A stretch of DNA of 41,857 nt from Elusimicrobiota bacterium (GTDB lineage Bacteria > Elusimicrobiota > Elusimicrobia > UBA1565 > UBA9628): the NCBI GenBank assembly GCA_043783505.1, contig JAYVZL010000035.1, positions 1 through 41,857 on the forward strand, written 5' to 3'. Numbering within the stretch: position 1 is the first letter of the stretch; every line of letters begins with the position of its first letter. Positions 18,861 to 41,857 of this stretch are shown here, in pieces. Both the position numbers and the translations under genes were made by a program. Below the pieces are notes generated by a model that made no database searches, was not told the DNA's origin, and saw only the letters and a program-made list of their open reading frames with translations.

Positions 18861-19540
18861 TGAAGATACTGGTCCTCGCCGCTCACGGCGACGACGAGCT
18901 TCTCGGACCGGGCGGGACGTTGATCCGCCACGCCCGGTCCGGGGACGCCGTCCATGCGGCGATCTGCGTGGGCAAGCCCAACCTCGCGATGTACCCGAAG
19001 GCTCGCTATGGCAACGGCGTGCTGGCCAAGCGCAAGCGCCAAGCCGAGCAGGTGGGACGCAAGTTGGGCTTTAAATCCGTCCGCAATCTAAACCTCAAAG
19101 ACGAGTGTCTTGAGCAGGATCTCAACTCCACCGTGACCTCGATCGAGAAGACGGTCAAAGAGATCAGGCCCGACACCGTCTATCTGCATCATGGCGGCGA
19201 TCTCAACCAAGATCATCGCGGAGTGTTCAAGGCCGCGATGATCGCGTTGCGCGGCTATCTCAAGCCCGCGGTTGCGCGCGTGCTGTGCTTCGAGACCGCC
19301 TCCACGACCGAGCAGGCGCCGCAAGTCCCTGGCTGGCAGTTCTCGCCCAACTATTTCGTCGACATCACCGCGACCTTGGATCAAAAAATTCAGGCGCTCC
19401 AAATATACGATGATGAATTAGTGGCGTTTCCCCACCCGCGCTCGGCCGAGGGCCTGCGGGCGCTGGCGCAGACTCGCGGCTCGGCCGTCGGTCTGCGCGC
19501 GGCCGAGGCCTTTCAGTTGATCCGGGAGACGGTGGCCTGA
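18860..19540 (+). CDS. PIG-L / LmbE-family N-acetyl-sugar deacetylase
   Basis: TGATG overlap with the upstream gene. Motifs: MKILVLAAHGDDELLGPGGTL and HHGGDLNQDH (metal-binding His/Asp). Confidence 0.85.
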   Translation: MKILVLAAHGDDELLGPGGTLIRHARSGDAVHAAICVGKPNLAMYPKARYGNGVLAKRKRQAEQVGRKLGFKSVRNLNLKDECLEQDLNSTVTSIEKTVKEIRPDTVYLHHGGDLNQDHRGVFKAAMIALRGYLKPAVARVLCFETASTTEQAPQVPGWQFSPNYFVDITATLDQKIQALQIYDDELVAFPHPRSAEGLRALAQTRGSAVGLRAAEAFQLIRETVA

Positions 19541-19542
19541 CC

Positions 19543-21311: not shown

Positions 21312-21345
21312 TTTCTTATGTCTATTTTCAGTTATTCGACTTATC

Positions 21346-21389
21346 CACAGGCAAGGCCGCAACTAGCGTTGACGACAGTTGGGCCTGTG
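21346..21389. other. Imperfect hairpin in the AT-rich 110-bp gap before neuB
   Basis: CACAGGC (21346-21352) pairs with GCCTGTG (21383-21389). An inner CAACT/AGTTG stem is also present. No U-tract follows on either strand. Confidence 0.3.
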
Positions 21390-21421
21390 AAAAGTGTCAA
21401 TATCTTCGACGGAAAAAATAT

Positions 21422-23385: not shown

Positions 23386-24017
23386 GCAAGAAGAAATTCG
23401 TGCTCGCCGTCATCCCCGCCCGAGGCGGCTCCAAAGGCATTCCCGGCAAGAACATCAAGATGATCGCCGGCAAGCCTCTTCTTGCCTGGACCATCGAGCA
23501 TGCCCTGGCGGCGAAAACGGTGGACCGCGTCGTCGTTTCCACCGAGGATGCGAAGATCGCCGCCGTGGCCCGACAGTGGGGTGCTGAAGTCCTCGATCGT
23601 CCCAAGGCCCTGGCGACGGATAAGGCCGACACCTTGCCCGTGCTCCAGCACGCCCTGAAAAACTGCCCGGCCGACGTCCTCGTCGTCCTGCAATGCACAT
23701 CTCCCATACGATCAAAAGGTCTTATCGACCGCTGCGTGAATAAATTTTTAAAGACAAAAGCCGACTCCCTCGGCACGGTTTTTTCCGATCACTCCTTCGA
23801 ATACGGCGTCGAGATGCCCCGTCGTCAGGAGATCAAACCGCGCCTCATCGACAGCGGAAACGTGTACGTCAACAAAGCCGATCTGGTCCTCAAGAAGGGC
23901 GACCGCTACGGCCGCTTTGCGACCCTCGAGATCTCGCGCGAGGAGACGTTCGAGATCGACGAGCCGTTCGATTTCTGGCTGTGCGAAAAGCTGCTCATGG
24001 AACGGCGGGTGAACTGA
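23382..24017 (+). CDS. neuA: Acylneuraminate cytidylyltransferase family (CMP-nonulosonic acid synthetase, NeuA/PseF-like)
   Basis: GTGA overlap with the upstream gene. Motifs: VLAVIPARGGSKGIPGKNIKMIAGKPLLAWTIEHA and VLQCTSPIR. Confidence 0.85.
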   Translation: MSKKKFVLAVIPARGGSKGIPGKNIKMIAGKPLLAWTIEHALAAKTVDRVVVSTEDAKIAAVARQWGAEVLDRPKALATDKADTLPVLQHALKNCPADVLVVLQCTSPIRSKGLIDRCVNKFLKTKADSLGTVFSDHSFEYGVEMPRRQEIKPRLIDSGNVYVNKADLVLKKGDRYGRFATLEISREETFEIDEPFDFWLCEKLLMERRVN

Positions 24018-30784: not shown

Positions 30785-31906
30785 ATGAAAACAAACACCC
30801 CCAAAGCCTCGCCCGCCCCCAAGGCCATTTCCCAGTATTGGGACCACATCACCGAGTACGAGCTCGATGACGCCTGGCGCGCGGCCAACGACACCCCGGC
30901 CTACCGCGAGTACCGCAAGAATTTCGACGCCGCCCAAAAACGCCAGTATCTTGGGGATTTCCCGCTCTCGATTGAAATCGAGGCCAGCTACTTCTGCAAT
31001 CTCAAGTGCCCCTTCTGCCCCCGCGTCGTCAACCTGGGCGAGCGTGAGGTCGGCCACATGAGCCAAGAGCTCTGGGATAAGATCCTCACCGAGTGCCGCG
31101 CCAACGGCCTCAACGCCATCCTTATGGATCATGAGGCCGAGTCGATGATGAACCCGCGCTTCATCGGCATGGTCAAGGACGCCAAGGACGCCGGCATCCT
31201 CGACATCTGGCTGCACACCAACGCCAACCTCCTGACACCCAAGAAGTCCGAGGAGCTCATCGAGGCCGGCATTACCAAGATCAATTTCTCCATCGACGCG
31301 ACCGACGACGCCGTCTACGACGTCCTGCGCGTCGGCGGCAACCTCGCCAAGGTGATCAAGAACGTCAACGAGTTCCTGGGCATCAAGCTCGCCAAGAAGG
31401 CCCACCACGTGCGCACGCGCGTGAGCTTCGTCGAGCAGAAAGAGAATCTCCACCAGAAACAGGCCTTCCTTGAGCAGTGGAAAGACGCGAAGGGCCTCAA
31501 CATGGTGACGTACCAGGAGTGCGTGGACTTTTCCCTGTTCGAGAAGCCCGACGCCGACATGGCGCTCTCCGAAAAAGAGCTCGAGGTGAAGTACAAGGAC
31601 GCCGAGCCCTTTCACTGCAGCCTGCCATGGGAGATGCCCGTCATCGACACCGAGGCCAACGTCATGCCCTGCGGCTCGCCCGTGCGCGAGCACACCAAGG
31701 ACTTCATTCTCGGCAACCTAAACAAGGGCGACACCATCAAGTCCTGTTGGAAAGGTCCCAAGATGACCGCCCTGCGCGAGCTGCACCAGAAAGGCGAGTG
31801 GTACAAAAATCCGGTTTGCCGCGTCTGCGTGAAGTCGATGCGCGATTCCAAGAAGAGCATGCGCGCCCTGCGCGAAAAAACCGCGGCGGTCGCCGCGAAA
31901 GACTGA
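30785..31906 (+). CDS. Radical SAM enzyme with a C-terminal SPASM/twitch-like Cys cluster (paralogue 2)
   Basis: GGAGGA lies 10 nt upstream. CNLKCPFC (CxxxCxxC). C-terminal FHCSLPW..VMPCGSP..NPVCRVCV. WKGPKMT is shared with the ORF at 19543. Confidence 0.85.
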   Translation: MKTNTPKASPAPKAISQYWDHITEYELDDAWRAANDTPAYREYRKNFDAAQKRQYLGDFPLSIEIEASYFCNLKCPFCPRVVNLGEREVGHMSQELWDKILTECRANGLNAILMDHEAESMMNPRFIGMVKDAKDAGILDIWLHTNANLLTPKKSEELIEAGITKINFSIDATDDAVYDVLRVGGNLAKVIKNVNEFLGIKLAKKAHHVRTRVSFVEQKENLHQKQAFLEQWKDAKGLNMVTYQECVDFSLFEKPDADMALSEKELEVKYKDAEPFHCSLPWEMPVIDTEANVMPCGSPVREHTKDFILGNLNKGDTIKSCWKGPKMTALRELHQKGEWYKNPVCRVCVKSMRDSKKSMRALREKTAAVAAKD

Positions 31907-31910
31907 GCCG

Positions 31911-32873
31911 ATGAAAACGCGCGAGCTCGGGCGCCTGCCCGCGCGCGTCTCGGCCGTCGGTCTGGGTACCGCGCAGCTCGCCAATCTCGACGGGTCCGTC
32001 GCCGGCATACGACACGTCGCCCCGGCCGATGCCAAGCGCATCCTCGAGACCGCGATAGAAGACGGGGTATCCGTCTTCGACACCGGCGATCAGTACGGCG
32101 CCGCCGAGGAATTGATTGGTTCGTTAGACTCTTCCTTGCGCGCACGCGTCATCGTTGCCACTAAGGCAGGACTGCGCGACGATGGACAAAGGGATTTTAC
32201 ACCCGTTTATCTTCGCTCACGTCTGGAACGCTCTCTCAAGCGCCTGAAAACCGAGCGTCTCGATCTGTTTCAGCTCAACAAACCCTCCGCGAATGACTGG
32301 CAGGACGGCCATTTGGCCTCTTTTCTAAAAGAAGAAAAACAACGAGGTCGCATCCGCTTCGCGGGCGTGGTGGTGGGAGAAGCGGCGGACGGACTACGGG
32401 CCCTCGAAGAATCTTCCATCGACACCGTTCAAGTCCTCTTCCACCTCCTTTATCACGCCGCGGAACCTGTCATCGCCTCGGCCGCGCAGAAAGGGAAAGG
32501 AGTGATCATTCGTTCTCCTCTCAACAGCGGTCTTCTTTCCGGCACGTATCGCTCCGACACCGTCGTTCCCGCCGCCGACGAACGTTCCCGCTATTTCGCC
32601 GGCGCGGAGTTCCAAAGCCGCGTCTCGGCACTTCAAGCGATTCAGAGCGACCTAAACATAACGGATAGCCAACTAGTCGAATACGCACTGCGCTTCTGCC
32701 TATCGGAGCCCGGCGTCTCGACCGTCATTCCCGGCGCCTCCCGTCTAGAACAGTCCCGCCGCTACGCAGCCTGCGGCGACGCGAAGCCGATGTCTGCCCA
32801 GGAGCTGGCGAAGGTTAAAGCCGTCGTCGCGGCCCGGATGTCCGGCGTCGGCGTCACTTTTCAGCTTCAATAA
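31911..32873 (+). CDS. Aldo/keto reductase family oxidoreductase
   Basis: 320 aa with VSAVGLGTAQL, FDTGDQYGAAEELIG (the DTAxxYG-type motif) and LDLFQLN. Confidence 0.85.
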   Translation: MKTRELGRLPARVSAVGLGTAQLANLDGSVAGIRHVAPADAKRILETAIEDGVSVFDTGDQYGAAEELIGSLDSSLRARVIVATKAGLRDDGQRDFTPVYLRSRLERSLKRLKTERLDLFQLNKPSANDWQDGHLASFLKEEKQRGRIRFAGVVVGEAADGLRALEESSIDTVQVLFHLLYHAAEPVIASAAQKGKGVIIRSPLNSGLLSGTYRSDTVVPAADERSRYFAGAEFQSRVSALQAIQSDLNITDSQLVEYALRFCLSEPGVSTVIPGASRLEQSRRYAACGDAKPMSAQELAKVKAVVAARMSGVGVTFQLQ

Positions 32874-32874
32874 C

Positions 32875-33636
32875 ATGGGACATTTCGACTCCTTTCTCGT
32901 TCAGAACCTAAAAAAGCAGGAAGCCTCCGAGACCGCGGCCGAGGAAAACGGGCAGGATGCCTCGCGCGGCGACTTCGGAGCCTATCACCGACTGCTGAAG
33001 CATCGTAAAGACGACTGGGTGAAGCTGCATGCCGTCATCGACAAGGCCGAGGCCGACCAATACGCGGCTCAAGTTTTCGCCGCCGCGGGGCCGCTGCCTT
33101 TAAATCCCACGCTTCTCGACGCCGGCTGCGGCCCGGGAGTGATCACCGAGTCGCTCCGGGCTCGATTATCCTGCGCCGCGGCGACCGGGATCGACATCTC
33201 CCAATCGGCGGTTCAGTACGCGCGGGAAGAATTCAAAAAATGCCGCTTCGAGACTGTCGGAATCGACGAGCACACGGTCTTACCCAATCAATACGACATC
33301 ATCCACACCCGCGAGTTTTATCCATTTACAAGAACCGGTGACGTTGCCGTTCATAAAACCTACCTGGAGGTTTTCGCCAAGCACCTCAAACCAGGCGGTC
33401 TCCTAATCCATGCGCTTCTGGCTCAAAACGGAACGCTGGCCGACAACAGCCAGGAGCTCGCAATGGACATGCGCCATTGGGGACTCTCCCCTTTTCAAGT
33501 AATCCCCTTAGCCAACGCGAGCATTCTTCGTCTCTTAGGTAACGTCCCCTTAAGCCGAACCGCGACCTGGGTCATACAGCAGATCCTGCGACGATCCCAG
33601 CGTTACTTCTACATCAGCCGTCGAATCGAGCCATAA
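32875..33636 (+). CDS. Class I SAM-dependent methyltransferase
   Basis: 253 aa with LLDAGCGPGVITESL, GIDISQSAVQYA and LKPGGLLI. Confidence 0.75.
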   Translation: MGHFDSFLVQNLKKQEASETAAEENGQDASRGDFGAYHRLLKHRKDDWVKLHAVIDKAEADQYAAQVFAAAGPLPLNPTLLDAGCGPGVITESLRARLSCAAATGIDISQSAVQYAREEFKKCRFETVGIDEHTVLPNQYDIIHTREFYPFTRTGDVAVHKTYLEVFAKHLKPGGLLIHALLAQNGTLADNSQELAMDMRHWGLSPFQVIPLANASILRLLGNVPLSRTATWVIQQILRRSQRYFYISRRIEP

Positions 33637-33673
33637 AAGCAATGCAACGATCGCAGAATCTTAGTACGCGTCA

Positions 33674-33696
33674 GAATGTAGCAGATGTGATACTTT
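33674..33696 (+). repeat. Copy 1 of a 23-bp direct repeat GAATGTnGCAnATGTGATACnTT
   Basis: gaatgtAgcaGatgtgatacTtt lies in the 212-bp intergenic region upstream of kpsF. Confidence 0.7.
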
Positions 33697-33715
33697 GACT
33701 AGTCCCGGGACGAGT

Positions 33716-33738
33716 GAATGTCGCACATGTGATACATT
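33716..33738 (+). repeat. Copy 2 of the 23-bp direct repeat
   Basis: gaatgtCgcaCatgtgatacAtt is identical to copy 1 at 20 of 23 positions and starts exactly 42 bp downstream of it. Confidence 0.7.
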
Positions 33739-33848
33739 CCGAGTTGAAGGGATAGAATGAGCGCGCCCAGACCCACCGACGCACACCCTGCGGGCAGACC
33801 GTCCCAATCGACGGTAAGCATTCAAATAGTTAGTAAAATATAATCCCA

Positions 33849-34823
33849 ATGAGCCGCTCCTCACCGCTCTCTGAAGTTCGCCGCGTCCTCACCCTTGAGG
33901 CCCGCGCCCTGACCAGGGCCGCGGCCGCCGTGGACACGCGTTGGATCAAGGCCTTGGACCTGATCGCTGGATGCCGCGGCAAGCTCATCCTCACCGGGAT
34001 GGGCAAATCCGGCCTGGTCGCGCAGAAGATCGCCGCGACCTTTTCCTCAACTGGCACGCCCGCCCTGTTTCTCGACCCCGGGGAAGCTCTTCATGGCGGA
34101 TTGGGCGTCGTCCAAAAAGGCGATCTTATCCTTGCTATCGGGAAGTCCGGGGAGTCCGATGAGCTCAACGCCTTGCTGCCCGCCTTGCGCGCGCGCAAGA
34201 TCGCGCTCATCGCCATGACGTCCAATCCGCGCTCGACTTTGGCTAAGGCCGCGGCTTTGGTCCTGGAAATGCCTCTTGAAGCCGAGGCCTGCCCGCTCAA
34301 CCTCGCCCCCACCACCAGCACGACCGTGGCCATGGCCCTGGGCGACGCGCTGGCCGTGGCCCTCATGAAGCGGCGCAATTTCAAGGCCGAGCACTTCGCG
34401 GCCAATCATCCGGGCGGCCGCCTAGGCAAGCGGCTGACCTTGCGCGTGCGCGACGTGATGCGCGGGGGCAAAGACAATCCAACCGTCTTGCTAAACGCCT
34501 CGACGACCGAGCTGCTCACCGCGATCACCCGCCTGCAGGCCGGCGCCGCATCCATCGTCGACCGAGGCGGTCGCTTCCTGGGCCTGGTCACCGACTATGA
34601 CATCCGCCGCGCGCTCGAGGCCGGCGGCGACTTCCGCCGTCTTAAGATCGCCGCGATCATGAACGCCAAGCCCGCGACTATCTTTCCCGACGCGCTCGCC
34701 GCCGAGGCCGTCGAGATCATGGAAGACCGGCGCGCGCCCTTCAACGTCCTGCCCGTCGTCGACGGTCGCGGCCGCTCCGTCGGCCTGATCCAAATCCATG
34801 ACCTGCGCGCGCGAGGCCTCTGA
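33849..34823 (+). CDS. kpsF: Arabinose-5-phosphate isomerase (KpsF/GutQ/KdsD family, SIS + tandem CBS domains)
   Basis: 324 aa with GKLILTGMGKSGLVAQKIAATFSSTGTPALFLDPGEALHGGLG, and a C-terminal CBS pair (VMRGG..LLNAS.., IMNAKPATIFPD..). Confidence 0.9.
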   Translation: MSRSSPLSEVRRVLTLEARALTRAAAAVDTRWIKALDLIAGCRGKLILTGMGKSGLVAQKIAATFSSTGTPALFLDPGEALHGGLGVVQKGDLILAIGKSGESDELNALLPALRARKIALIAMTSNPRSTLAKAAALVLEMPLEAEACPLNLAPTTSTTVAMALGDALAVALMKRRNFKAEHFAANHPGGRLGKRLTLRVRDVMRGGKDNPTVLLNASTTELLTAITRLQAGAASIVDRGGRFLGLVTDYDIRRALEAGGDFRRLKIAAIMNAKPATIFPDALAAEAVEIMEDRRAPFNVLPVVDGRGRSVGLIQIHDLRARGL

Positions 34824-35584
34824 TGACCCTGAAAGAAAAGCTCCGGCGCGGCGTGCCCGCCATCGGCGCCTGGATCACCCTCGCCCACCCGGCCTTCGCC
34901 GAGATCGCGGCCCGCGCGGGCTTCGACTGGGTCGCCGTCGATCTCGAGCACAGCTCGATCACCATCCGCGAGTGCGAGGACTTGCTCCGCGTCCTCGACT
35001 TGGCCGGAACCACCCCGCTGGTGCGCCTGACCGCCAACGATCCGGACCTAATCAAGCGTGTGATGGATTCCGGCGCGCGCGGCGTGATCGTGCCCTGCGT
35101 CTCCACTCCCGAGGAAGCCGAGATCGCGGTCGAGGCGGTGCATTATCCGCCCCGCGGCCGTCGCGGCGTGGGGCTGGCCCGCGCTCACGCCTACGGCGCC
35201 GACTTCGCCGGCTATCTCAAGAGATTGGAACGCGAGGCGGTCGTCGTCGCAATGATCGAAAACGCCCAAGGCGTGGAGAACGCCGAGCACATCCTGGCCG
35301 TGCCCGGAGTGGACGCCTATTTTCTCGGGCCCTACGACCTGTCCGCCTCGCTCGGCGTCACGGGCAAGCTATCCCATCCGAAGGTCGAGAAAGCCATCGC
35401 CGCGGTCCGCGCCGCGGGCAAGCGCGCGCGCAAGCCCGGCGGCATTCACGTCATCGAACCCGATCCCGCCGCCCTGCGGCGACGTCTCAAAGAAGGCTTC
35501 GGCTTCATCGCCTACAGCCTCGAGACCCGCGTCTACGACACCGCCCTTCGCGCGGCTCTCAAAGGTCTCAGGGCGCCTCGGTGA
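34823..35584 (+). CDS. HpcH/HpaI-family class II (metal-dependent) pyruvate aldolase
   Basis: TGATG overlap with kpsF. Motifs: AIGAWITLAHPAFAEIAARAGFDWVAVDLEHSSI, PLVRL, YPPRGRRGVG, MIENAQGVENAEHILAVPGVDAYFLGPYDLSASLG. Confidence 0.85.
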   Translation: MTLKEKLRRGVPAIGAWITLAHPAFAEIAARAGFDWVAVDLEHSSITIRECEDLLRVLDLAGTTPLVRLTANDPDLIKRVMDSGARGVIVPCVSTPEEAEIAVEAVHYPPRGRRGVGLARAHAYGADFAGYLKRLEREAVVVAMIENAQGVENAEHILAVPGVDAYFLGPYDLSASLGVTGKLSHPKVEKAIAAVRAAGKRARKPGGIHVIEPDPAALRRRLKEGFGFIAYSLETRVYDTALRAALKGLRAPR

Positions 35585-36372
35585 AGCCCCGCGTCGTCGC
35601 CATCGTGCCCGCGCGCATGGCGTCCACGCGCTTTCCCGGCAAGCCGATGGCCGCCATCCGCGGCGTGCCCATGATCGGCCACTGCTACTTCCGCACGGCG
35701 ATGTCCAAGACCGTAGACGAGACCTGGGTCGCCACCTGCGACAAAGAAATCTACGACTACATCCGCTCCGCGGGCGGCAAGGCGGTCATGACCAAGGACA
35801 CGCACACGCGCTGCTCCGACCGCTGCGCCGAGGCCATGCTCAAGATCGAGGCCGAGACCGGAAAAAAGATCGACATCGTCGCCATGGTCCAAGGCGACGA
35901 GCCAATGGTCTGGCCAGACATGATCGACGATGCGGTGGCGCTGATGCTTAAGGACCCCCCCTGCCCCATCGCCTGCCTGATGGGCGACATCGAGACGGAG
36001 GAAGAGTTTGAGGATCCCAACTGCGTGAAGGTCGTCGTCGACAAAAACAATCGCGCCTTGTATTTCTCGCGCGAGCCCATCCCCACGCGCAAAAAGGGCG
36101 CCAAAAACGCGCCGCGGCGCCGCCAGGTCCCGATCATTCCCTTTCGCCGCGACTATCTCCTGCGCTTCAACGCGCTCGCTCCCACCCCGCTTGAGATCGC
36201 CGAATCCGTGGACTTGATGCGCTGCGTGGAGCACGGCGATCCCGTCATGCTGGCACTCACCAAGCGCCGCATCATCAGCGTGGACACCCCCGCCGACCTG
36301 GCCCGTGCCGAGGCCGCGATGGCCGGCGACATTTTGATATCCAAGTACGCGGCAGGAGCCGCCGCCAAATGA
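35581..36372 (+). CDS. kdsB: 3-deoxy-manno-octulosonate cytidylyltransferase family (CMP-Kdo synthetase-like)
   Basis: GTG 35581 overlaps the upstream stop (GTGA). Motifs: VVAIVPARMASTRFPGKPMA, MVQGDEPMV, DPNCVKVVVDKNNRALYFSREPIP, TPLEIAESVDLMR, VDTPADL. The track ORF 34798..36372 has a spurious 5' extension. The symbol is a family-level call, because the substrate may not be Kdo. Confidence 0.85.
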   Translation: MKPRVVAIVPARMASTRFPGKPMAAIRGVPMIGHCYFRTAMSKTVDETWVATCDKEIYDYIRSAGGKAVMTKDTHTRCSDRCAEAMLKIEAETGKKIDIVAMVQGDEPMVWPDMIDDAVALMLKDPPCPIACLMGDIETEEEFEDPNCVKVVVDKNNRALYFSREPIPTRKKGAKNAPRRRQVPIIPFRRDYLLRFNALAPTPLEIAESVDLMRCVEHGDPVMLALTKRRIISVDTPADLARAEAAMAGDILISKYAAGAAAK

Positions 36373-37418
36373 CGGGCAAGCTGCGCGTGGGCATCGCCGG
36401 CTACGGCGTCGTCGGCCGGCGCCGCCGTCTGCACATCGACAAGCACCCGCGCCTGAAGGTTATCGCAGTCAGCGAGGTTAAATTAGGACGAGACGGTGTC
36501 CTGCCAGACGGCGTGCGGCATTACGCCGATTACCGCGACCTCATCGCCAAGGAAACTCTCGACGTTCTGTTCGTGTCCCTGCCCAATCACCTTGCCGCCG
36601 ACGCGACGGTCCGCGGACTGACCAAAGGACTCCACACCTTCTGCGAGAAGCCGCCAGGCCGCGACCTGGCCGACGTGGCGCGTGTGCGCGCCGCCGAGCG
36701 CCGCCGTCCTAAGCTCAAGCTCAAGTACGGCTTCAATCATCGCTATCACGACTCGGTGCGCGATGCGCTCAAAGTTGTTCGCTCAGGCCGCCTTGGAGAG
36801 ATTCTCAATCTAAACGGCGTTTATGGGAAGAGCCACATCATCCCTTTCGACAAAGGCTGGCGCGCGCAACGGCGCTTCGCGGGCGGGGGCATCCTACTCG
36901 ACCAGGGCATCCACATGGTGGACCTGATGCGTCTGTTTGCGGGCGACTTCACCTCGGTCAGCAGCGTCGTCTCCAACGCCTACTGGAAGCACGACGTCGA
37001 GGACAACGCCTACGCCCTCATGAAGACGAAGGCCGGCGTCGTCGCCTTGATGCACTCCTCGGCCACGCTTTGGCGCCACCGCTTCAATCTCGACATCACT
37101 CTCGAGAAGGGCTCGCTGACCTTGGCCGGCATCCTCTCCGGCTCCAAGAGCTACGGCGCCGAGACCCTCACCACGGCGGTCGCCGCCAAGAACGACTCCG
37201 GCGACCCCGCCGAGACCATCACGCGCTATAATGAGGACAACTCCTGGCGCGAGGAGATCGTCGAGTTCGCCGACTGCGTGCTCAAGAACAAGCGCGTTCG
37301 GCACGGCGACTCCAAGGACGCACTGAAAACCATGGAACTCATCTATCGCATCTACTGCGCCGATCCGGCCTGGAAGAAGAAATACCGCCTCACCGACCGG
37401 GTTCCGGCGGCGCGATGA
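36369..37418 (+). CDS. Gfo/Idh/MocA-family NAD(P)-dependent oxidoreductase
   Basis: ATGA overlap with the upstream gene. Motifs: LRVGIAGYGVVGRRR, FCEKPP (EKP motif), GGGILLDQGIHMVDL. Confidence 0.85.
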   Translation: MTGKLRVGIAGYGVVGRRRRLHIDKHPRLKVIAVSEVKLGRDGVLPDGVRHYADYRDLIAKETLDVLFVSLPNHLAADATVRGLTKGLHTFCEKPPGRDLADVARVRAAERRRPKLKLKYGFNHRYHDSVRDALKVVRSGRLGEILNLNGVYGKSHIIPFDKGWRAQRRFAGGGILLDQGIHMVDLMRLFAGDFTSVSSVVSNAYWKHDVEDNAYALMKTKAGVVALMHSSATLWRHRFNLDITLEKGSLTLAGILSGSKSYGAETLTTAVAAKNDSGDPAETITRYNEDNSWREEIVEFADCVLKNKRVRHGDSKDALKTMELIYRIYCADPAWKKKYRLTDRVPAAR

Positions 37419-38134
37419 AAAAGATCCTCTCCGGACGCAAGGCCTTGGTCACCGGCGGCACACGCGGCATCGGCCGCGCGATCGCCGAGCGCCTGCGCGA
37501 CCAAGGTGCCGCGGTCACCGTCACCGGCACCCGGGCGGAAGGCAAGCCTCCCCGCGACTGCGCCTACGAGGCCGCCGACTTCGCCGATAAGGCCGGGACC
37601 GAGGCCTTCGCCGCCGCGATGGCGCGTCGGGGCTTTGACATCCTGGTCAACAACGCGGGGATCAACACCATCGCCCCGTTCGCCGCGATTGATCCCGCCG
37701 ACTACGACGCGATCCAGCGCGTGAACGTTCGCGCGCCCTTCCTCCTCTGCCGAGCTCTTCTGCCCGCGATGACGCGCCGCCGCTGGGGGCGCATCGTCAA
37801 CGTCAGCTCGATCTTCGGCGTGATCAGCAAGGAAAACCGCGGCGCGTACTCGGCGAGCAAGTTCGCGCTCGACGGGATGACGGCCGCACTGGCCGCCGAG
37901 GCCGCGGCCTCGGGCGTGCTCGCCAACTGCGTGGCGCCGGGCTACGTGGACACCGACCTCACGCGCCGCGTACTCGGCGCCAAAGGCATGAAGGAACTCG
38001 CCGCGCGCGTGCCCGCCAAGCGCCTGGCCCAGCCGCGCGAGATCGCAGCACTCGCGGCCTGGCTGTGCGGACCCGAGAACACCTACATCAGCGGCCAGAA
38101 CATAGTCATCGATGGCGGATTCTCCCGCGTCTGA
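37415..38134 (+). CDS. Classical short-chain dehydrogenase/reductase (FabG-like)
   Basis: ATGA overlap with the upstream gene. Motifs: ALVTGGTRGIGRAIA, NNAG, YSASKFAL, PGYVDTD. Confidence 0.9.
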   Translation: MKKILSGRKALVTGGTRGIGRAIAERLRDQGAAVTVTGTRAEGKPPRDCAYEAADFADKAGTEAFAAAMARRGFDILVNNAGINTIAPFAAIDPADYDAIQRVNVRAPFLLCRALLPAMTRRRWGRIVNVSSIFGVISKENRGAYSASKFALDGMTAALAAEAAASGVLANCVAPGYVDTDLTRRVLGAKGMKELAARVPAKRLAQPREIAALAAWLCGPENTYISGQNIVIDGGFSRV

Positions 38135-39203
38135 CCTCGTCGTTTCCTCCCACAAGGGACCGTACGCGGTGGAATTCCGCGGCGATCCCTTCGCGGAGCT
38201 GTGCGCGCTCGCCGGGGCGGGCGCGCACTTCATCATCGACGCCCGCGTGGCCGAGCTCTACGAGCGCGAGCTCGGGGCCGTGCTCGCCTCTCCTTCCGTT
38301 TATCGATTAAACGCGACGGAGGAAAATAAATCGATCGAGGCCATGCCTCCCGTGGTGCGCCACCTCGTCGGCAAAGGCCTGCGCCGCGGACAGACGCTCG
38401 CCGCCGTCGGCGGCGGGATCACCCAGGACGTCGCCTGCTTCCTGGCCGCGACGATGCTACGCGGGGTGGACTGGGTCTTCGCCCCGACGACCTTGCTCGC
38501 GATGGCCGACTCCTGCGTGGGCTCGAAAAGCTCGATCAACGGGGGCGGCGCCAAGAACGTTCTCGGGACTTTTACTCCTCCGAGGCGGATCATCCTCGGC
38601 GCCGTCTTCCTGAAGACGCTCGCGGACAAGGACGTGCGCTCCGGCGTCGGCGAGATGCTCAAGGTCCACGCCATAGAAGGTCCCACGTCTTTCGACGCCA
38701 TCGCCGCCGATTACGCGAGCCTTTTTACCGACCCCGCGATCATGACGCGCTACCTGCGCCGCTCGCTCGAGATCAAGAAGCCCATCGTCGAGGCCGACGA
38801 GTTCGACACCGGTCCGCGCCTGGTGATGAACTACGGCCACTCCTTCGGACACGCGCTCGAGGCGGCGACTGAGTTCGCCATTCCCCACGGCATCGCGGTC
38901 ACCATCGGCATGGACCTGGCCAACTTCGCCGCGGGGAAGTTGGGTCTGGGCGATAGGTCTCATTATCTCCGCATGCGCCCGACCTTGGCCGCCAACTGGC
39001 GCGGCTACGAAAAAGTTCCCGTCCCTCTGGGTGATTTTCTGGCCGCTCTTTCCAAGGACAAAAAGAACACGACCAAGGCGCTGGGACTTATCCTGCCCGG
39101 CCCCGACGGCCGCGTGCGCAAGGTCGAGGTCCCCTCCGATGAGAAGTTCCGCGCCGTCTGCGCCGAGCACCTCTCAAAAGGACGCTCAGAGATCCTGTCA
39201 TGA
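38112..39203 (+). CDS. 3-dehydroquinate-synthase superfamily enzyme (sugar-phosphate cyclase / DHQS-like)
   Basis: 363 aa with AVGGGITQDVACFLAA, VFAPTTLLAMADSCVGSKSSIN, GVGEMLKVHAIEG and NYGHSFGHALE (metal-binding His pair). Confidence 0.7.
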   Translation: MADSPASDLVVSSHKGPYAVEFRGDPFAELCALAGAGAHFIIDARVAELYERELGAVLASPSVYRLNATEENKSIEAMPPVVRHLVGKGLRRGQTLAAVGGGITQDVACFLAATMLRGVDWVFAPTTLLAMADSCVGSKSSINGGGAKNVLGTFTPPRRIILGAVFLKTLADKDVRSGVGEMLKVHAIEGPTSFDAIAADYASLFTDPAIMTRYLRRSLEIKKPIVEADEFDTGPRLVMNYGHSFGHALEAATEFAIPHGIAVTIGMDLANFAAGKLGLGDRSHYLRMRPTLAANWRGYEKVPVPLGDFLAALSKDKKNTTKALGLILPGPDGRVRKVEVPSDEKFRAVCAEHLSKGRSEILS

Positions 39204-40108
39204 GCAAGGTCGCCGTGGCCTCACGCTCATTTTCAAAACACGCGATGCTTCGCGCGGAGCTGTCGGCCCGCCACCCAGACGTGCGTTTTAACGACGCGGG
39301 CTCCTCCCTAAATGGAGAGGAGCTTGTTGCATTTTTATCTGACTGCGAAAAGGCCGTGCTGGCGCTGGAGATCGTCGATGACGGCCTGCTCGCACGGCTT
39401 CCCAATCTAAAGCTAATCAGTAAATTCGGCGTCGGTCTGGACTCTTTTGATCTAAAGGCAATAGAGAAACATGGCGTCAAACTCGCCTGGACGCCGGGCA
39501 CAAACTCGCGCTCCGTGGCCGAGCTGGCGCTGATGTCGGCGCTGGCTCTTTTGCACCGTGTGAGCGAAGCCGCCGCCGACTTGCGCGCCGGGACCTGGCG
39601 CCAGCTCAAGGGCTCGACTCTTACCGGCAAGACCGTCGGCCTCGTCGGCTTGGGCTCGGTGGGCCGCGACCTCGTCTCCCTGTTGGCCCCGTTCAACGTC
39701 CGCTTGCTCGCGCACGATCCGGCCGCGGATCGCCTCTTCGCCGAGACCAAAGGCGTACGACTTGTTTCCCTTGATGACCTGCTGCGCGAGAGCGACGTCG
39801 TCAGCCTGCACCTGCCGCTGACGCCCGCTACCAAGAATATTCTAGACGCCGAGCATCTGGCTTTGATGAAGCCGTCGTCCCTTCTTCTCAACACCGCGCG
39901 CGGCGGCCTCATCGACGAGGACGCGCTACTGGCTGCTCTCGACGCCGGGCACCTGGCCGGCGCCGCCCTCGACGCCTTCGCCGAGGAACCGACGAAGAAC
40001 GCGCGCCTGCTCTCCCACCGCAAGATCCTGGCCACGCCGCACATCGGCGGAAGCACCGAGGAAGCCATCCTCGCCATGGGCCGCGCGGCCATCGCCGGCC
40101 TCGGCTGA
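39200..40108 (+). CDS. D-isomer-specific 2-hydroxyacid dehydrogenase (phosphoglycerate-dehydrogenase-like)
   Basis: ATGA overlap with the upstream gene. Motifs: GKTVGLVGLGSVGRD, SLHLPLTPATKNILD, LLNTARGGLIDEDAL, TPHIGGST. Confidence 0.9.
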   Translation: MSKVAVASRSFSKHAMLRAELSARHPDVRFNDAGSSLNGEELVAFLSDCEKAVLALEIVDDGLLARLPNLKLISKFGVGLDSFDLKAIEKHGVKLAWTPGTNSRSVAELALMSALALLHRVSEAAADLRAGTWRQLKGSTLTGKTVGLVGLGSVGRDLVSLLAPFNVRLLAHDPAADRLFAETKGVRLVSLDDLLRESDVVSLHLPLTPATKNILDAEHLALMKPSSLLLNTARGGLIDEDALLAALDAGHLAGAALDAFAEEPTKNARLLSHRKILATPHIGGSTEEAILAMGRAAIAGLG

Positions 40109-41857
40109 TGAGCCGTCTGATCGTCTGCTGGACAAACCCGGTCGCAGCGCCTGAAGGTCCCCTCCTCAGCTTTCTGCCTCCGACCGCGGAGGAGGCGTTG
40201 GCCGGACACGTCTCGGGTCGATTTCTGCGCGCCCGCGAAATGCCCTCCGCGGCCCGCGCTCAAGCCCGCGCCGATTATCTCGGGACCGCAGCCAGAATAG
40301 GAGCCGAGCGAGTCGGCGGGCGGACTTTGCGCGAAGAGGCCTCCGACGGCAACGCCTGGTGGCACCACCCGGTTTCTTATAAGGATTGCGAAAATGACCC
40401 GACCTTCGCCCGCATCCTCGCCTTGCGCGCCATCCTGTGGGCCGCGGACGCGGTCTCGGCGGACGCCATCGAGACCTGGGGAGCTCCTCCCGAGATCGTC
40501 GCCGCGCTGAACGGCCGCTTCAAAGTCATCGTTCATGCCGCGCCTTGGTGCGTGCCGGAGCCCATCTGGTGGCTAAGGGCCCTGGCCTCGCGCGTCTTCG
40601 GTCTGATCCGATCCCTTCTCGATCTGATCGCCTGCATCGGCGCGCGTCCAGCCGGGCCCCGGCCAAACGTCCTGCTGCTCGGCTACTGGGACTGGTCCGT
40701 GCGCGAAGAGGACGGACGCCTCGTCGATCGCTACTTCAAGGCTCTTCCCGCTGAGATCGCCGCGCTCGGCCGTTCGGTCGGGCGCCTGTGCTGGCTCGAC
40801 GTCTTCGGCGATCCGGCCCGGGCCTCCCGTGGACGACGTGCCGCGGTGCGCGCCGCGAAATCAGAGAACATCGCCCTTCTTCAGTCCTATCTCGACATAG
40901 GAGACGCGCTCGAGGCGGCCTTCGAGCTCCGCCCGCTCTCGGCCTATCTGCGCCGTCGCAACGATCCCGATTTTCGGGTGATTTTTGAAATCGACGGACT
41001 CGACTTATTTCCTCTTTTCGCCGAGCGTCTCCTGCGCGGTTTTCTCGACGGCGGACTCCCGCGCTGCGCGCTCATCGAAAAAGCCTCGCAGCGCGCCTGC
41101 GCGGCACTCAAGCCGAAAGTCTGCGTCCATTTTCTCGAGCACCACCCGCATGCCCGCGCCGCCTTCGCGGGCGCGCGCGCGGCCGGAGCGCGCACCGCCG
41201 CCATCCAGCACGCCGGCTTCTGTCGCGAGAAGACTTTCTACTTCTTCGATCCCGCCCTCGAGTTCCGCGGCGATCCCGACGGCCGCGCGGTCCCCGCGCC
41301 CGACTTGGTCTTCGCCATGGGCGAGATGACGCGCAAGCATTTCCTCGACTGCGGCTATCCTTGCGAACGGGTTCTGACGACGGGCTCTCCGCGCTACGAT
41401 CATGTCCGCCCTCCGGTCCCGGCCAAAACCCGTTCCGGCGCGGGCGTGCGCGTTCTCTTGGCGCCGGCGCTCGATCTCGACGTCGAAGCCGCCTTACTCG
41501 CGGCCGCCGCGGCCGCGGCCCACGATGCGCCCGGCGTGGAATTGCGCCTGCGCGACCACCCCTTCGCTCCGCTCAGCCGGCGTCCCGAGTACGCCTCCGT
41601 CAAGGACCGCGTCGCGCTGTCGACCGGAAGCCTGGACGAAGACCTCGACTGGGCCGACTTGGTCCTGTTCAGCTACTCCACCGTCGCCGAGGAAGCCGTG
41701 CTCAAGGGCGTTCCCGCCTGGCAATGGAAGCCGGTGTCCTACGACGCCTCGGCCTTATCCGAAGCCGCCGACATCCCGCGCTTCACCTCGGTCGCGTCCC
41801 TGCGCGAGGCCCTAACCGGCTTCCGCTCCGGCCACGGACTTCCAAAGGACCGGACCC
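40108..41857 (+). CDS. Large uncharacterised protein, putative GT-B-like CMP/CDP-sugar-dependent transferase; 3' end lies beyond the right window edge
   Basis: Absent from the ORF track because it is open-ended. ATG 40108 overlaps the upstream stop (TGATG). I read 583 codons to the window end without a stop (MSRLIVCWTNPVAAP...WWHHPVSYKDCENDP...AAIQHAGFCREKTFYFFDP...VLTTGSPRYDH...VRVLLAPALD...ELRLRDHPF...DLVLFSYSTVAEEAVLKGVPAW...). The antisense 482-aa ORF 39088..40536 is Arg/Ser/Ala-rich and crosses two well-supported genes. Confidence 0.6.
   Translation, partial: MSRLIVCWTNPVAAPEGPLLSFLPPTAEEALAGHVSGRFLRAREMPSAARAQARADYLGTAARIGAERVGGRTLREEASDGNAWWHHPVSYKDCENDPTFARILALRAILWAADAVSADAIETWGAPPEIVAALNGRFKVIVHAAPWCVPEPIWWLRALASRVFGLIRSLLDLIACIGARPAGPRPNVLLLGYWDWSVREEDGRLVDRYFKALPAEIAALGRSVGRLCWLDVFGDPARASRGRRAAVRAAKSENIALLQSYLDIGDALEAAFELRPLSAYLRRRNDPDFRVIFEIDGLDLFPLFAERLLRGFLDGGLPRCALIEKASQRACAALKPKVCVHFLEHHPHARAAFAGARAAGARTAAIQHAGFCREKTFYFFDPALEFRGDPDGRAVPAPDLVFAMGEMTRKHFLDCGYPCERVLTTGSPRYDHVRPPVPAKTRSGAGVRVLLAPALDLDVEAALLAAAAAAAHDAPGVELRLRDHPFAPLSRRPEYASVKDRVALSTGSLDEDLDWADLVLFSYSTVAEEAVLKGVPAWQWKPVSYDASALSEAADIPRFTSVASLREALTGFRSGHGLPKDRT

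Follow-up and report, generated by a model that had tools for sequence, protein, structure and literature searches.

What sugar could be made by an operon that sets a KpsF-family isomerase and a KdsB-like cytidylyltransferase beside an aldolase, three oxidoreductases, a dehydroquinate synthase (DHQS)-like enzyme and a putative transferase? Such an operon closes the window, the whole 41,857-nucleotide stretch of Elusimicrobiota DNA analysed here, and the original prediction had read it as an eight-gene pathway to a CMP-activated 3-deoxy-ulosonic, possibly carbocyclic, sugar. All eight plus-strand genes were found where predicted in the ORF listing of the window, each of the seven junctions (7/7) overlaps as described (Table 1), and the gene calls of locus L057 (85% identical) overlap identically. 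Profile searches confirmed all predicted families, placing g1 to g7 in SIS+CBS KpsF/GutQ, HpcH_HpaI, CTP_transf_3, Gfo/Idh/MocA, SDR, DHQ_synthase and 2-Hacid_dh, respectively. The upstream gap, said to be the largest of the cluster, is so between plus-strand genes from about 16 kb onward; it contains one sigma-70-like site and a 9-bp direct repeat, ATGTGATAC, and an HTH_3 regulator gene takes its position in L057. The surroundings are those of a glycan locus, with a flippase, glycosyltransferases and a second NeuB/CTP_transf_3 set, and no KdsA or KdsC homologue was found by tblastn anywhere in the window.

Table 1 Genes, junctions and upstream elements of the operon in the window
Feature	Position	Strand	Description
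Gap upstream of operon	33637-33848	+	212 nt
Direct repeat, copies 1 and 2	33685-33693 and 33727-33735		9 bp
Sigma-70-like site	33729-33758		
g1	33849-34823	+	KpsF/GutQ-family sugar-phosphate isomerase (SIS + 2 CBS)
g1/g2 junction	34821-34825		TGATG
g2	34823-35584	+	HpcH/HpaI class II pyruvate aldolase
g2/g3 junction	35581-35584		GTGA
g3	35581-36372	+	KdsB/KpsU-like cytidylyltransferase, cassette subtype 1; GTG start
g3/g4 junction	36369-36372		ATGA
g4	36369-37418	+	Gfo/Idh/MocA NAD(P) oxidoreductase
g4/g5 junction	37415-37418		ATGA
g5	37415-38134	+	Classical SDR, FabG-like
g5/g6 overlap	38112-38134		23 nt
g6	38112-39203	+	DHQS-like enzyme, TIGR04425; cassette signature gene
g6/g7 junction	39200-39203		ATGA
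g7	39200-40108	+	D-2-hydroxyacid dehydrogenase, PGDH-like catalytic core
g7/g8 junction	40106-40110		TGATG
g8	40108-41857	+	GT-B-fold protein, putative transferase for CMP-sugar; cut by window end

To place the operon, we gathered 103 related loci from Elusimicrobiota, Leptospira, Magnetospirillum, Actinomycetota, Planctomycetes, Gammaproteobacteria and many metagenomes. Their invariant core consists of an SDR, a DHQS-like enzyme (TIGR04425) and a Gfo/Idh/MocA oxidoreductase, usually accompanied by a PGDH-like 2-hydroxyacid dehydrogenase, a CTP_transf_3 protein and a GT-B protein of about 600 amino acids with an invariant His-Pro. The same gene order recurs in five Elusimicrobiota loci and is mostly kept across phyla, so the arrangement is evidently not due to chance. 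Judged by gene content, the operon of the window is one lineage's version of a widespread surface-sugar cassette. Among the 32 loci flanked by 5 kb or more on either side, Gfo and SDR genes were present in all 32, the 2-hydroxyacid dehydrogenase in 27, KdsB-like genes in 22, GmhA-like isomerases in 18, g8 in 16, HpcH in 12, KpsF and 6-phosphogluconolactonase (Pgl) in 5 each, and KdsA in one; with E. coli KdsC as the only query, no KdsC phosphatase was detected in any cassette locus (0 of the 32). The KdsB-like figure is an undercount, as three loci scored negative bear other CTP_transf_3 genes, two of them cupin-domain fusions directly after the core. An SDR gene immediately precedes the DHQS-like gene in 76/82 loci with sufficient flank, and the g7-type gene immediately follows the latter in 43/77. 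Variants include one architecture without the 2-hydroxyacid dehydrogenase (L006, L098, L114) and others with a HisC-like aminotransferase and a second Gfo.

These counts do not bear out the eight genes as one fixed unit, given how often KpsF (5/32) and HpcH (12/32) are missing, and they add a GmhA-like isomerase (18/32) and, in some loci, a 6-phosphogluconolactonase to the predicted membership. The GmhA-like gene of the closest relatives lies just downstream of g8, past the position at which the window ends, which is why it was missed; by analogy, it probably sits just beyond the window here too. The GmhA-like proteins retain H61, D94, S119, S121, S124 and H180 of GmhA and score far under the GmhA equivalog cut-offs; their substrate could be another phosphosugar, Ru5P included. 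The Pgl of the Leptospira cassette L015 exceeds the TIGR01198 cut-off, and Pgl-like genes adjoin Gfo or isomerase genes in L115 and L141.

The signature enzyme g6 scores 431 bits against TIGR04425 (cut-off 400) and falls below the aroB equivalog TIGR01357 (240 bits, cut-off 305), and genuine DHQS enzymes, not DOIS or EEVS, are its closest matches among solved structures. Thirteen active-site residues, whose ligand roles we take to be those of the A. nidulans DHQS structure, were checked in 134 family members: R117, D133, K139, N149, E181, K184, K222, R236, N240, H243, H247, H259 and K317 all match canonical AroB, 12 of them at 99-100% and K184 at 96%. The NAD+, metal, phosphate and carboxylate-binding residues are thus all retained in g6, K222 and R236 being the putative carboxylate binders. 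The family also has invariant positions of its own (G105Q, G109C, G138S, Q156P, W121, F123, D268, N271). With the full catalytic and ligand set in place, carbocyclisation by g6 appears chemically possible; the predicted cyclisation gains from a separate family that keeps the whole DHQS set, although a carbocyclic end product is the slightly less favoured outcome.

The cytidylyltransferase g3 matches PF02348, passes the 'CMP-Kdo synthetase' subfamily model NF009905 (300 bits, cut-off 255) and lies just under the kdsB equivalog TIGR00466 (151.6 bits, cut-off 155.2); among solved structures it comes closest to E. coli KpsU (1gq9). Compared with canonical KdsB it retains the Mg-binding QGDEP and VDT motifs and carries an extra C-terminal tail, and it shows HTRCSDR for HESGTDR, RQVPIIPFR for KHVGIYAYR, ESVDLMR for ESLEQLR and ATCD for ATDD. 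If residue roles are presumed to follow the E. coli KdsB/KpsU structures, the altered motifs fall in the Kdo-binding C-terminal domain. Across the cassettes, cytidylyltransferase subtypes track either HpcH (12 loci) or the HisC-like aminotransferase (7 loci) with zero overlap, and KdsB-like and DHQS-like genes co-occur across phyla, mostly without KpsF. Altered sugar-site motifs and this shared distribution support the view of g3 as non-canonical.

For the other enzymes, g4 is structurally nearest to inositol 2-dehydrogenase, 1,5-anhydrofructose reductase and glucose-fructose oxidoreductase. The g7 protein has no regulatory domain and matches PGDH structures at 179 bits; phosphoglycerate dehydrogenases oxidise phosphorylated 2-hydroxy acids. 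The window holds the 5' 583 codons of g8, whose complete protein has 611 amino acids. Profile search gave no Pfam match to g8 and only a weak one to TIGR04326 (75.9 bits, a distant member), and iterative search ties it to proteins that score as full members, among them that of L015 (567 bits). Its AlphaFold2 model (pLDDT 82.7, pTM 0.86) matches GT-B enzymes exclusively, and His484-Pro485 is invariant in 30-31/31 family members, both of which strengthen its assignment as a putative transferase.

At the other end of the operon, g1 scores 294 bits against TIGR00393 (cut-off 203.7), shares 43% identity with E. coli KdsD and is probably an arabinose-5-P (A5P) isomerase. The aldolase g2 matches PF03328 (133 bits) and lies under the HpaI, GarL and RhmA equivalog cut-offs; GarL His50, Arg75, Glu153 and Asp179 are retained in 24/24 cassette HpcH copies, which invariably adjoin a type-1 KdsB-like gene. 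KpsF overlaps HpcH in the window and the pair adjoin again in Legionellales L011, which speaks for A5P as the HpcH acceptor and weighs against the C7 route preferred below. It had also been proposed that other enzymes stand in for KdsA and KdsC. Group 2 capsule loci of E. coli normally contain kpsF and a kdsB paralogue but neither kdsA nor kdsC, and the missing genes are therefore no evidence for such a replacement.

Taken together, the cassette probably, on balance, makes a phosphate-free, CMP-activated acidic sugar other than Kdo and transfers it to a surface glycan. The DHQS-like enzyme would remove the phosphate by NAD+/metal-dependent oxidation, beta-elimination and re-reduction; the SDR, translationally coupled to it, would reduce the resulting ketone, after which g3 would form the CMP ester and g8 transfer the sugar. 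For the carbon skeleton we tentatively prefer a C7 acid derived from sedoheptulose-7-P, a reading that we hold at somewhat less than even confidence. The GmhA-like isomerase would convert sedoheptulose-7-P to heptose-7-P, Gfo (a putative role suggested by gene context) would oxidise C1 to a lactone leading to heptonate-7-P, the PGDH-like enzyme would set the 2-oxo group and the DHQS-like enzyme would remove the phosphate. A 6-phosphogluconolactonase homologue, present in some loci, fits the lactone step. If the 2-oxo group precedes phosphate elimination, the product would be a carbocyclic, hydroxylated dehydroquinate analogue; if it is installed last, a 7-deoxy-heptulosonic acid. We lean slightly towards the latter because every CMP donor known to us requires an anomeric centre. 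KpsF and HpcH of the Elusimicrobiota lineage may provide a 3-deoxy-ulosonate from A5P and pyruvate or epimerise it, or may extend the core product. Against the C7 route stand HpcH (12/32), for which it offers no obvious function, the architecture of L006, L098 and L114 with its missing 2-hydroxyacid dehydrogenase, and the low equivalog scores of the GmhA-like proteins. As to the predicted A5P feedstock, sedoheptulose- or heptose-7-P is indicated at least as strongly by the GmhA-like and 6-phosphogluconolactonase genes, and A5P plus pyruvate stays a live rival.

That rival, a refinement of the original prediction, is rather doubtful. KpsF would make A5P, which HpcH would join with pyruvate to give Kdo-8-P or its C4 epimer (or HpcH would epimerise KdsA-made Kdo8P by retro-aldol and aldol reactions); the DHQS-like enzyme would oxidise C6, eliminate the C8 phosphate and re-reduce, yielding 8-deoxy-7-keto-Kdo, which cannot close a six-membered carbocycle, and C7 would then be reduced by the SDR or, in other lineages, aminated by the HisC-like aminotransferase before CMP activation by the divergent KdsB-like enzyme. 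Translational coupling of g1/g2 and g2/g3, the KpsF-HpcH adjacency in Elusimicrobiota and L011, KdsA next to KpsF in L011 and L101, the constant pairing of HpcH with type-1 KdsB-like genes, the KpsU likeness of g3 with its changes in the Kdo-binding domain and the missing KdsC all agree with this C8 route, and because its product is a true ulosonic acid, activation with CMP and transfer by a GT-B enzyme would follow established chemistry. Yet it leaves Gfo (32/32), the 2-hydroxyacid dehydrogenase (27/32), the GmhA-like isomerase (18/32) and Pgl without explanation; KpsF (5/32) and KdsA (1/32) are rare, and Actinomycetota L010 has HpcH without either. The exact DAHP ligand set of the DHQS-like pocket also better suits a C7 acid, as the C8 substrate is one carbon longer than DAHP and would have to bind as an open chain or a furanose. 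A full DHQS reaction on a 2-ulosonate-7-phosphate is a less probable, and on the whole unlikely, source of the product: a hydroxylated dehydroquinate/quinate analogue whose tertiary alpha-hydroxy acid mimics the Kdo anomeric centre, with the KdsB-like enzyme making the CMP ester and the GT-B protein acting as a pseudo-glycosyltransferase (in a variant, HpcH first adds pyruvate to the ring carbonyl, creating a new anomeric centre). The family-wide DHQS residues, including K222 and R236, the proximity to genuine DHQS structures and CTP_transf_3 genes directly after the core in several architectures without a C-C condensing enzyme are in line with it; ring closure is spontaneous after phosphate elimination from a 2-oxo-7-phospho acid, and validamycin and acarbose synthesis runs by the same logic from cyclase through nucleotidyl-carbasugar to GT-B pseudo-glycosyltransferase. 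However, we know of no CMP-activated carbasugar, displacement at a saturated tertiary carbon is, in the absence of a ring oxygen, a difficult reaction that would require elimination-addition or another unusual mechanism, and our literature search found no glycan with such a residue.

More ordinary readings fare worse. That g1 and g3 are a KpsF/KpsU-type pair boosting CMP-Kdo supply for a polysaccharide that contains Kdo, with the remaining genes belonging to unrelated sugar pathways and sharing the operon by chance, would accord with the known kpsF-kpsU layout, with the KpsU match and NF009905 score of g3 and with L101, where a canonical KdsA-KpsF-KdsB set stands beside the core. It is nevertheless improbable, since KdsB-like genes accompany DHQS-like genes across phyla mostly without KpsF, each of the two subtypes goes exactly with either HpcH or the HisC-like gene (12 versus 7 loci), and conserved KdsB motifs are replaced in a protein just under the equivalog cut-off. 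A shikimate/quinate or sugar-acid catabolic module formed by the DHQS-like enzyme, HpcH and the oxidoreductases can hardly be correct: AroB-like, HpaI/GarL-like and inositol-dehydrogenase-like enzymes do occur there, by family name alone, but the AroB, HpaI, GarL, RhmA and IolG equivalog cut-offs are all missed. Throughout, the genes around the cassettes encode flippases, glycosyltransferases, methyltransferases, NDP-sugar enzymes and cytidylyltransferases, and neither shikimate genes nor transporters and regulators of catabolism were seen among them. This glycan context largely refutes a catabolic module. The predicted dedicated glycan pathway, as opposed to LPS housekeeping, is supported.

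The claim that no such combination was known holds in part. A literature search found no paper on the cassette and none mentioning TIGR04425, but both signature families already have NCBIfam models: TIGR04425, to which g6 belongs, as 'AroB-related putative sugar phosphate phospholyase (cyclizing)', a hypothetical equivalog, and TIGR04326, a distant relative of g8, as the surface carbohydrate biosynthesis protein 'O_ant_LIC13510', with putative functions and without an attached substrate, product or pathway. Like AroB and the sugar-phosphate cyclases DOIS, EEVS and DDGS, g6 has the common fold and keeps the ligand residues; unlike AroB, it falls below the aroB equivalog cut-off, has family-specific invariant substitutions and stands in glycan loci beside an SDR and a cytidylyltransferase rather than in shikimate or aminocyclitol clusters. 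The operon shares a KpsF-family isomerase and a KdsB/KpsU-like cytidylyltransferase with the CMP-Kdo pathway and differs from it in lacking KdsA and KdsC, in its altered sugar-domain motifs and in a cytidylyltransferase that has the DHQS-like core, not KpsF, as its co-evolving partner. With the Shewanella Kdo8N (KdnA/KdnB) and nonulosonic (NeuB/PseI/LegI plus NeuA/PseF/LegF) pathways it shares a logic in which an ulosonic acid is tailored by redox and transamination, then CMP-activated and transferred; the enzyme families differ, phosphate is apparently removed by a lyase instead of a phosphatase, and the cassette has no NeuB-type synthase (the NeuB of L062 is a PseI equivalog). In validamycin and acarbose synthesis, an EEVS cyclase leads to NDP-valienol and a GT-B pseudo-glycosyltransferase such as VldE. 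The cassette likewise unites a DHQS-superfamily enzyme, a nucleotidyltransferase and a GT-B protein in one cluster, plausibly fed by sedoheptulose-7-P, but it has no kinase, would place CMP on an alpha-hydroxy acid rather than GDP on an allylic carbasugar 1-phosphate, and belongs to a cell-surface glycan instead of a secondary metabolite.

Profile searches and ORF calls resolve eight genes on the + strand, running from 33849 to the end of the window (g1-g8, table). The original prediction, which described eight ORFs joined by seven overlaps, agreed with the ORF calls and the junction sequence throughout: in order, the junctions are TGATG, GTGA, ATGA, ATGA, a 23-nt overlap, ATGA and TGATG. Its family assignments were upheld by profile search for each of g1-g7; g8 had no Pfam match and matched TIGR04326 weakly. 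The g8 gene is truncated at the window end, and an identical protein on another contig comprises 611 aa. The claimed absence of KdsA and KdsC was likewise confirmed, since tblastn of the E. coli queries against the whole window gave no match, and the E. coli KdsD query matched g1 only (43% identity).

Features of the nonulosonic-acid gene set and of the g1-g8 operon
Feature	Position	Strand	Basis
NAD epimerase/dehydratase	16775	+	
DegT aminotransferase	17679	+	
PIG-L deacetylase	18860	+	
Radical SAM/SPASM	19543	+	
WbqC	20484	+	
NeuB	21422	+	
310-aa ORF without family assignment	22453	+	
CTP_transf_3, second in locus	23382	+	
g1, KpsF/GutQ family (SIS + CBS)	33849-34823	+	profile search
g2, HpcH/HpaI aldolase	34823-35584	+	profile search
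g3, CTP_transf_3, KdsB-like	35581-36372, GTG start	+	profile search
g4, Gfo/Idh/MocA	36369-37418	+	profile search
g5, classical SDR	37415-38134	+	profile search
g6, DHQ_synthase N- and C-terminal domains	38112-39203	+	profile search
g7, D-2-hydroxyacid dehydrogenase	39200-40108	+	profile search
g8, no Pfam match, weak TIGR04326 match	40108 to window end	+	profile search

The 212-nt gap 5' of g1 contains one sigma-70-like site. A 9-bp direct repeat, ATGTGATAC, occurs in the same gap at 33685-33693 and 33727-33735, 42 bp apart, and its second copy overlaps the first hexamer of this only promoter-like site. The nearest relatives are Elusimicrobiota genome bins with 75-90% protein identity. In the closest long relative, L057 (one of the related loci carrying the DHQS-like gene, all labelled L), 85% nucleotide identity extends across 33787-41853; the gap sequence is not conserved and a gene for an HTH_3 regulator occupies its position. 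Beyond g8, L057 continues after 34 nt with a GmhA-like SIS_2 gene (13863-14489), followed by glycosyltransferases, DegT, a polysaccharide deacetylase and a Bac_transf priming transferase. The SIS_2 gene also follows g8 in L001, L002 and L017, a position that here would fall just past the window end, and numerous further loci have it immediately 5' of the SDR-DHQS-like pair.

The window is a surface-glycan locus. A separate CMP-nonulosonic-acid gene set, distinct from g1-g8, occupies 16775-24017 (+), and because it has its own CTP_transf_3 the locus encodes two cytidylyltransferases. Between this set and the operon lie methyltransferases, a further radical SAM/SPASM protein and an aldo-keto reductase. 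The trio that adjoins the operon upstream (30785-33636, +) consists of radical SAM/SPASM, the second such gene in the locus, aldo-keto reductase and methyltransferase genes, whose order is kept in L003 and L057. Several long ORFs at 10-16 kb and 25-29.8 kb have no Pfam match, and a glycogen-debranching/MGH1-like glycoside hydrolase gene at 4663-6900 (+), outside the glycan operon, seems unrelated.

Scans of genomes and metagenomes with the DHQS-like protein, together with homologue look-ups, yielded 103 loci, and genes were counted in the 32 loci with at least 5 kb of flank on each side. Gfo and SDR genes were present in all 32, accompanied by the PGDH-like 2-hydroxyacid dehydrogenase (2HADH) in 27, a KdsB-like gene in 22, a GmhA-like SIS_2 gene in 18, the g8 family in 16, HpcH in 12, a HisC-like aminotransferase in 7, KpsF and a 6-phosphogluconolactonase (Pgl) homologue in 5 each, and KdsA in 1; KdsC was found in none of the 32. 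The KdsB-like figure is an undercount, given that L101 and L114 carry a CTP_transf_3-cupin fusion directly after the core and L008 another CTP_transf_3. Among loci with enough flank, the gene immediately before the DHQS-like gene is an SDR in 76/82 and the one immediately after it is 2HADH in 43/77. The core is thus SDR, DHQS-like and Gfo, usually joined by 2HADH, a cytidylyltransferase and the GT-B protein (g8 family), and often by a GmhA-like isomerase, but only rarely by KpsF as an accessory. The original prediction had treated the eight genes as one unit. They do belong to a conserved modular cassette, and the counts in the 32 loci show that this particular set is one lineage's arrangement rather than a fixed one.

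The roughly one hundred loci come from soil, freshwater, marine and host-associated bacteria, and the cassette occurs in the O-antigen regions of several Leptospira serovars. Carriers that can be cultured include Leptospira weilii sv. Ranarum, L. borgpetersenii sv. Javanica, L. ainlahdjerensis and Magnetospirillum aberrantis SpK. By iterative search, 37 loci have a g8-family member, some of them from Leptospira, Actinomycetota and Magnetospirillum; the member from the Leptospira locus L015 scored 567 bits on TIGR04326. A search of a plasmid collection with g6 gave no match. Pgl exceeds the TIGR01198 cut-off in L015, and Pgl-like genes adjoin Gfo or the isomerase in L115 and L141. In L012 (Leptospira weilii sv. 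Ranarum), a TIGR04326-like gene downstream of 2HADH is split into three ORFs (12044-13946) and looks like a pseudogene; a complete paralogue (5098-6807) precedes the KdsB-like gene. The cassette of L059 (Hyphomicrobiales) is preceded at 2724-8499 by genes for ACP, MaoC dehydratase, SDR, FkbH-like and MBOAT acyltransferase proteins, which may point to the sugar being acylated, either with a hydroxyacyl unit or with one derived from glycerate. Within a few genes of the cassette, L007, L010, L059, L060, L062, L077 and L100 encode glutamine-dependent amidotransferases resembling asparagine synthase, and the carboxylate of the acid sugar could be amidated in some lineages.

Within the core, g6 passed TIGR04425, the model for an AroB-related putative sugar phosphate phospholyase, with 431 bits (curated whole-protein cut-off 400), and did not reach the aroB equivalog TIGR01357 (240 bits, cut-off 305). 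Among solved structures, true DHQS scored highest (up to 134 bits) and accounted for all of the five best alignments, ahead of DOIS (100), EEVS (86) and DDGS (74). The original prediction had proposed comparing this protein with DHQS; when 134 family members were aligned with 30 canonical AroB sequences, all thirteen active-site residues proved to be kept. R117, D133, K139, N149, E181, K184, K222, R236, N240, H243, H247, H259 and K317 are the same in AroB and 96-100% conserved, twelve of them at 99-100% within the family (the exception being K184). By motif, we take them to correspond to A. nidulans DHQS R130, D146, K152, N162, E194, K197, K250, R264, N268, H271, H275, H287 and K356, presumably the metal ligands, the phosphate cage and two carboxylate binders. 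Family-specific invariant differences include G105Q, G109C, G138S, Q156P, W121, F123, D268 and N271, and the genetic setting is glycan biosynthesis, not the shikimate pathway. Judging by the conserved residue set, the substrate of g6 is very probably a carboxylic sugar acid bearing a phosphate, on which the enzyme carries out NAD+-dependent oxidation and beta-elimination of phosphate. Ring closure would depend on a 2-oxo group being present at the elimination stage.

The cytidylyltransferase g3 is closest among solved structures to E. coli KpsU (150 bits). With 151.6 bits it fell short of the kdsB equivalog TIGR00466 (cut-off 155.2), and it passed the looser NF009905 'CMP-Kdo synthetase' subfamily model (300 bits, cut-off 255). 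We aligned the cassette copies with KpsU and one canonical KdsB. The KdsB/KpsU motifs HxSGT[DE]R, [KR]HxGIYAYR and LEQLR are replaced in g3 by HTRCSDR, RQVPIIPFR and SVDLMR, and similar replacements occur in each of the 43 cassette copies for which there is sequence, of type 1 and type 2 alike. None of the copies has lost QGDEP or VDT, and they have ATCD for ATDD and an additional C-terminal tail. Two subtypes of the CYTIDYLYLTRANSFERASE can be told apart. Type 1, to which g3 belongs, has xQxGxIxFR and ExxDM[LMN]R and is essentially always neighboured by HpcH. Type 2 has RIYGIF[AG]FR and E[AS]CDSNR, never adjoins HpcH, and comes with the HisC-like aminotransferase and a second Gfo. HpcH and this aminotransferase are mutually exclusive (12 and 7 loci, respectively, and both in none). 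We take His181 and Glu210/Gln211 of KdsB to contact Kdo. The altered motifs of g3 fall within the C-terminal domain, which binds Kdo according to a structural paper on KdsB. Furthermore, L101 carries KdsA, KpsF and KdsB of the canonical kind (HETGTDR motif) next to the core, as well as the cassette's own cytidylyltransferase. Based on the two subtypes, the changes in the Kdo-binding domain and this extra canonical set, we argue against ordinary Kdo as the sugar that g3 activates. The cupin domain of the CTP_transf_3 fusions is C-terminal (L101, 13082-14212; L114, 13166-14338), an arrangement that suggests activation coupled to isomerisation or epimerisation; in L101, a DUF4862 protein is encoded two genes past the fusion.

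For g1 (SIS 91 bits, CBS 59 bits), TIGR00393 was passed with 294 bits (cut-off 203.7), and the scores remained below the KdsD and GutQ equivalog cut-offs. The aldolase g2 (PF03328, 133 bits) was below those of HpaI, GarL and RhmA; GarL H50, R75, E153 and D179 (catalytic His/Arg and metal-binding Glu/Asp) are kept in 24/24 cassette copies including g2, which is predicted to be a competent class II pyruvate aldolase. The nearest proteins to g4 are inositol dehydrogenase, anhydrofructose reductase and glucose-fructose oxidoreductase. With 302 aa, g7 consists of the catalytic core only, lacking the regulatory ACT/ASB domain found in most types of PGDH, an enzyme that oxidises phosphorylated 2-hydroxy acids; it is closest to PGDH catalytic cores (179 bits) and did not reach the D-3-phosphoglycerate dehydrogenase equivalog (232 bits, cut-off 454). 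The SIS_2 proteins scored 90-124 bits on the GmhA equivalog (cut-off 209) and keep E. coli GmhA H61, D94, S119, S121, S124 and H180, with E65->D and Q172->E.

For g8, a sequence comparison with solved structures gave no match, and the fold search alone was informative. The AlphaFold2 model (pLDDT 82.7, pTM 0.86) confidently predicts a GT-B fold with two Rossmann-like domains, and the top PDB matches were all GT-B glycosyltransferases or UDP-GlcNAc 2-epimerases (E to 5e-8, TM ~0.5 on the target). H484-P485 is invariant in 30-31 of 31 members of the wider family, and S524-T525 follows about 40 residues past it, then an acidic residue. An HP motif is typical of GT-B enzymes using CMP-linked donors, in which, as in sialyl- and Kdo-transferases, a Ser/Thr pair about 40 residues further on binds the CMP phosphate. 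The motif is thus suggestive of a CMP-linked donor, and stays only suggestive because sialyl- and Kdo-transferases are absent from the top fold matches.

Together, our data show a dedicated module in which the DHQS-like protein is the only phosphate-removing enzyme and the product passes to a specialised cytidylyltransferase and a GT-B protein. To our knowledge, the known routes to CMP-activated acidic sugars all remove the precursor phosphate with a phosphatase. We infer each step of the following route, chosen for its use of the most frequent cassette genes. Sedoheptulose-7-P would be converted to heptose-7-P by the GmhA-like isomerase and oxidised by Gfo to heptono-lactone-7-P, which would open to heptonate-7-P, perhaps assisted by Pgl where present. 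Oxidation at C2 by the PGDH-like dehydrogenase, phosphate elimination by the DHQS-like enzyme and reduction of the resulting ketone by the SDR would follow. With the 2-oxo group in place before elimination, a DAHP-like pyranose would be expected to close to a hydroxylated dehydroquinate analogue; with the 2-oxo group added last, the product would be a 7-deoxy-heptulosonic acid, a genuine ulosonic acid and hence suited to orthodox CMP activation and glycosyl transfer. HpcH could epimerise C4 by retro-aldol and aldol reactions, swap hydroxypyruvate for pyruvate or extend the core product at a carbonyl. We prefer this route tentatively, at somewhat less than an even chance, and within it lean slightly towards the non-carbocyclic fork. 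An unlikely alternative is that the cassette's product is a carbocyclic 'carba-ulosonic' acid (a quinate or dehydroquinate analogue, hydroxylated and formed from a sedoheptulose-7-P-derived heptulosonate) that is CMP-activated by the KdsB-like enzyme and installed on the surface glycan by the His-Pro GT-B protein as a pseudo-glycosyltransferase.

The main rival is a refined form of the route first envisaged for these genes, in which HpcH would join KpsF-made arabinose-5-P and pyruvate to Kdo8P or its 4-epimer, the DHQS-like enzyme would form 8-deoxy-7-keto-Kdo, which cannot form a six-membered ring, and the SDR would reduce it. This scheme accounts for the tight KpsF-HpcH-KdsB coupling in the window, for KpsF and HpcH being neighbours in L011, and for KdsA turning up occasionally and KdsC not at all. 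However, Gfo, 2HADH, the isomerase and Pgl have no part in it, and the Actinomycetota locus L010 has HpcH but neither KpsF nor KdsA; we consider it rather unlikely. A C10 route from heptose-7-P and pyruvate clashes with the DAHP-like pocket and the HpcH-less variants, and E4P plus pyruvate as the source of a DAHP epimer would make the isomerase, Gfo and 2HADH superfluous. NeuB, found near the core in L006, L007, L021, L062 and L114, was considered as a PEP-dependent stand-in for HpcH and rejected, because the NeuB of L062 is a PseI equivalog and that of L114 is accompanied by NeuC and a CTP_transf_3 of its own, placing NeuB in separate nonulosonic pathways. Bradyrhizose, a carbocyclic O-antigen sugar of photosynthetic Bradyrhizobium, was also suspected; the genome scan gave no Bradyrhizobium locus and the lead was dropped. 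According to the bradyrhizose paper, its genes are unknown save for a cluster with a dTDP-glucose dehydratase.

In about one hundred loci, a DHQS paralogue is firmly tied to a cytidylyltransferase and to a protein of glycosyltransferase fold. CMP-activated acidic sugars such as Kdo and sialic, legionaminic and pseudaminic acids play a key part in determining bacterial surfaces, serotypes and interaction with hosts. Once worked out, the product would add a new sugar to bacterial glycobiology, either an omega-deoxy-ulosonic acid or a carbasugar acid, give a function to the 'hypothetical equivalog' families TIGR04425 and TIGR04326, and show DHQS chemistry put to a new use beyond aromatic and aminocyclitol metabolism. 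Should the carbocyclic reading be true, the cassette would provide the first example of a CMP-activated carbasugar and of DHQS-type cyclisation used in the primary envelope, widespread in environmental bacteria and some Leptospira serovars. Because the candidate routes differ in the substrate and product that they predict for a single soluble enzyme, they can be put to a direct test.

The view that no characterised pathway has this gene combination agrees with our literature search, which found no study of the cassette; it covered TIGR04425, DHQS-like enzymes paired with a cytidylyltransferase, dehydroquinate in connection with Leptospira rfb, glycans with carbocyclic or heptulosonic sugars, and HpcH together with CMP-Kdo synthetase, and gave nothing relevant. 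Its proteins fail membership of the AroB, KdsB, HpaI/GarL and PGDH equivalogs, and nothing named comes closer to it than the NCBIfam models TIGR04425 and TIGR04326, whose functions are hypothetical. As a CMP-activated acidic-sugar pathway the cassette is of a kind already known, and would be categorically new if the product is carbocyclic. In logic it resembles the CMP-Kdo and nonulosonic-acid pathways and Kdo8N tailoring; in its carbocyclic reading it resembles the validamycin scheme of cyclase, nucleotidyl-carbasugar and pseudo-glycosyltransferase.
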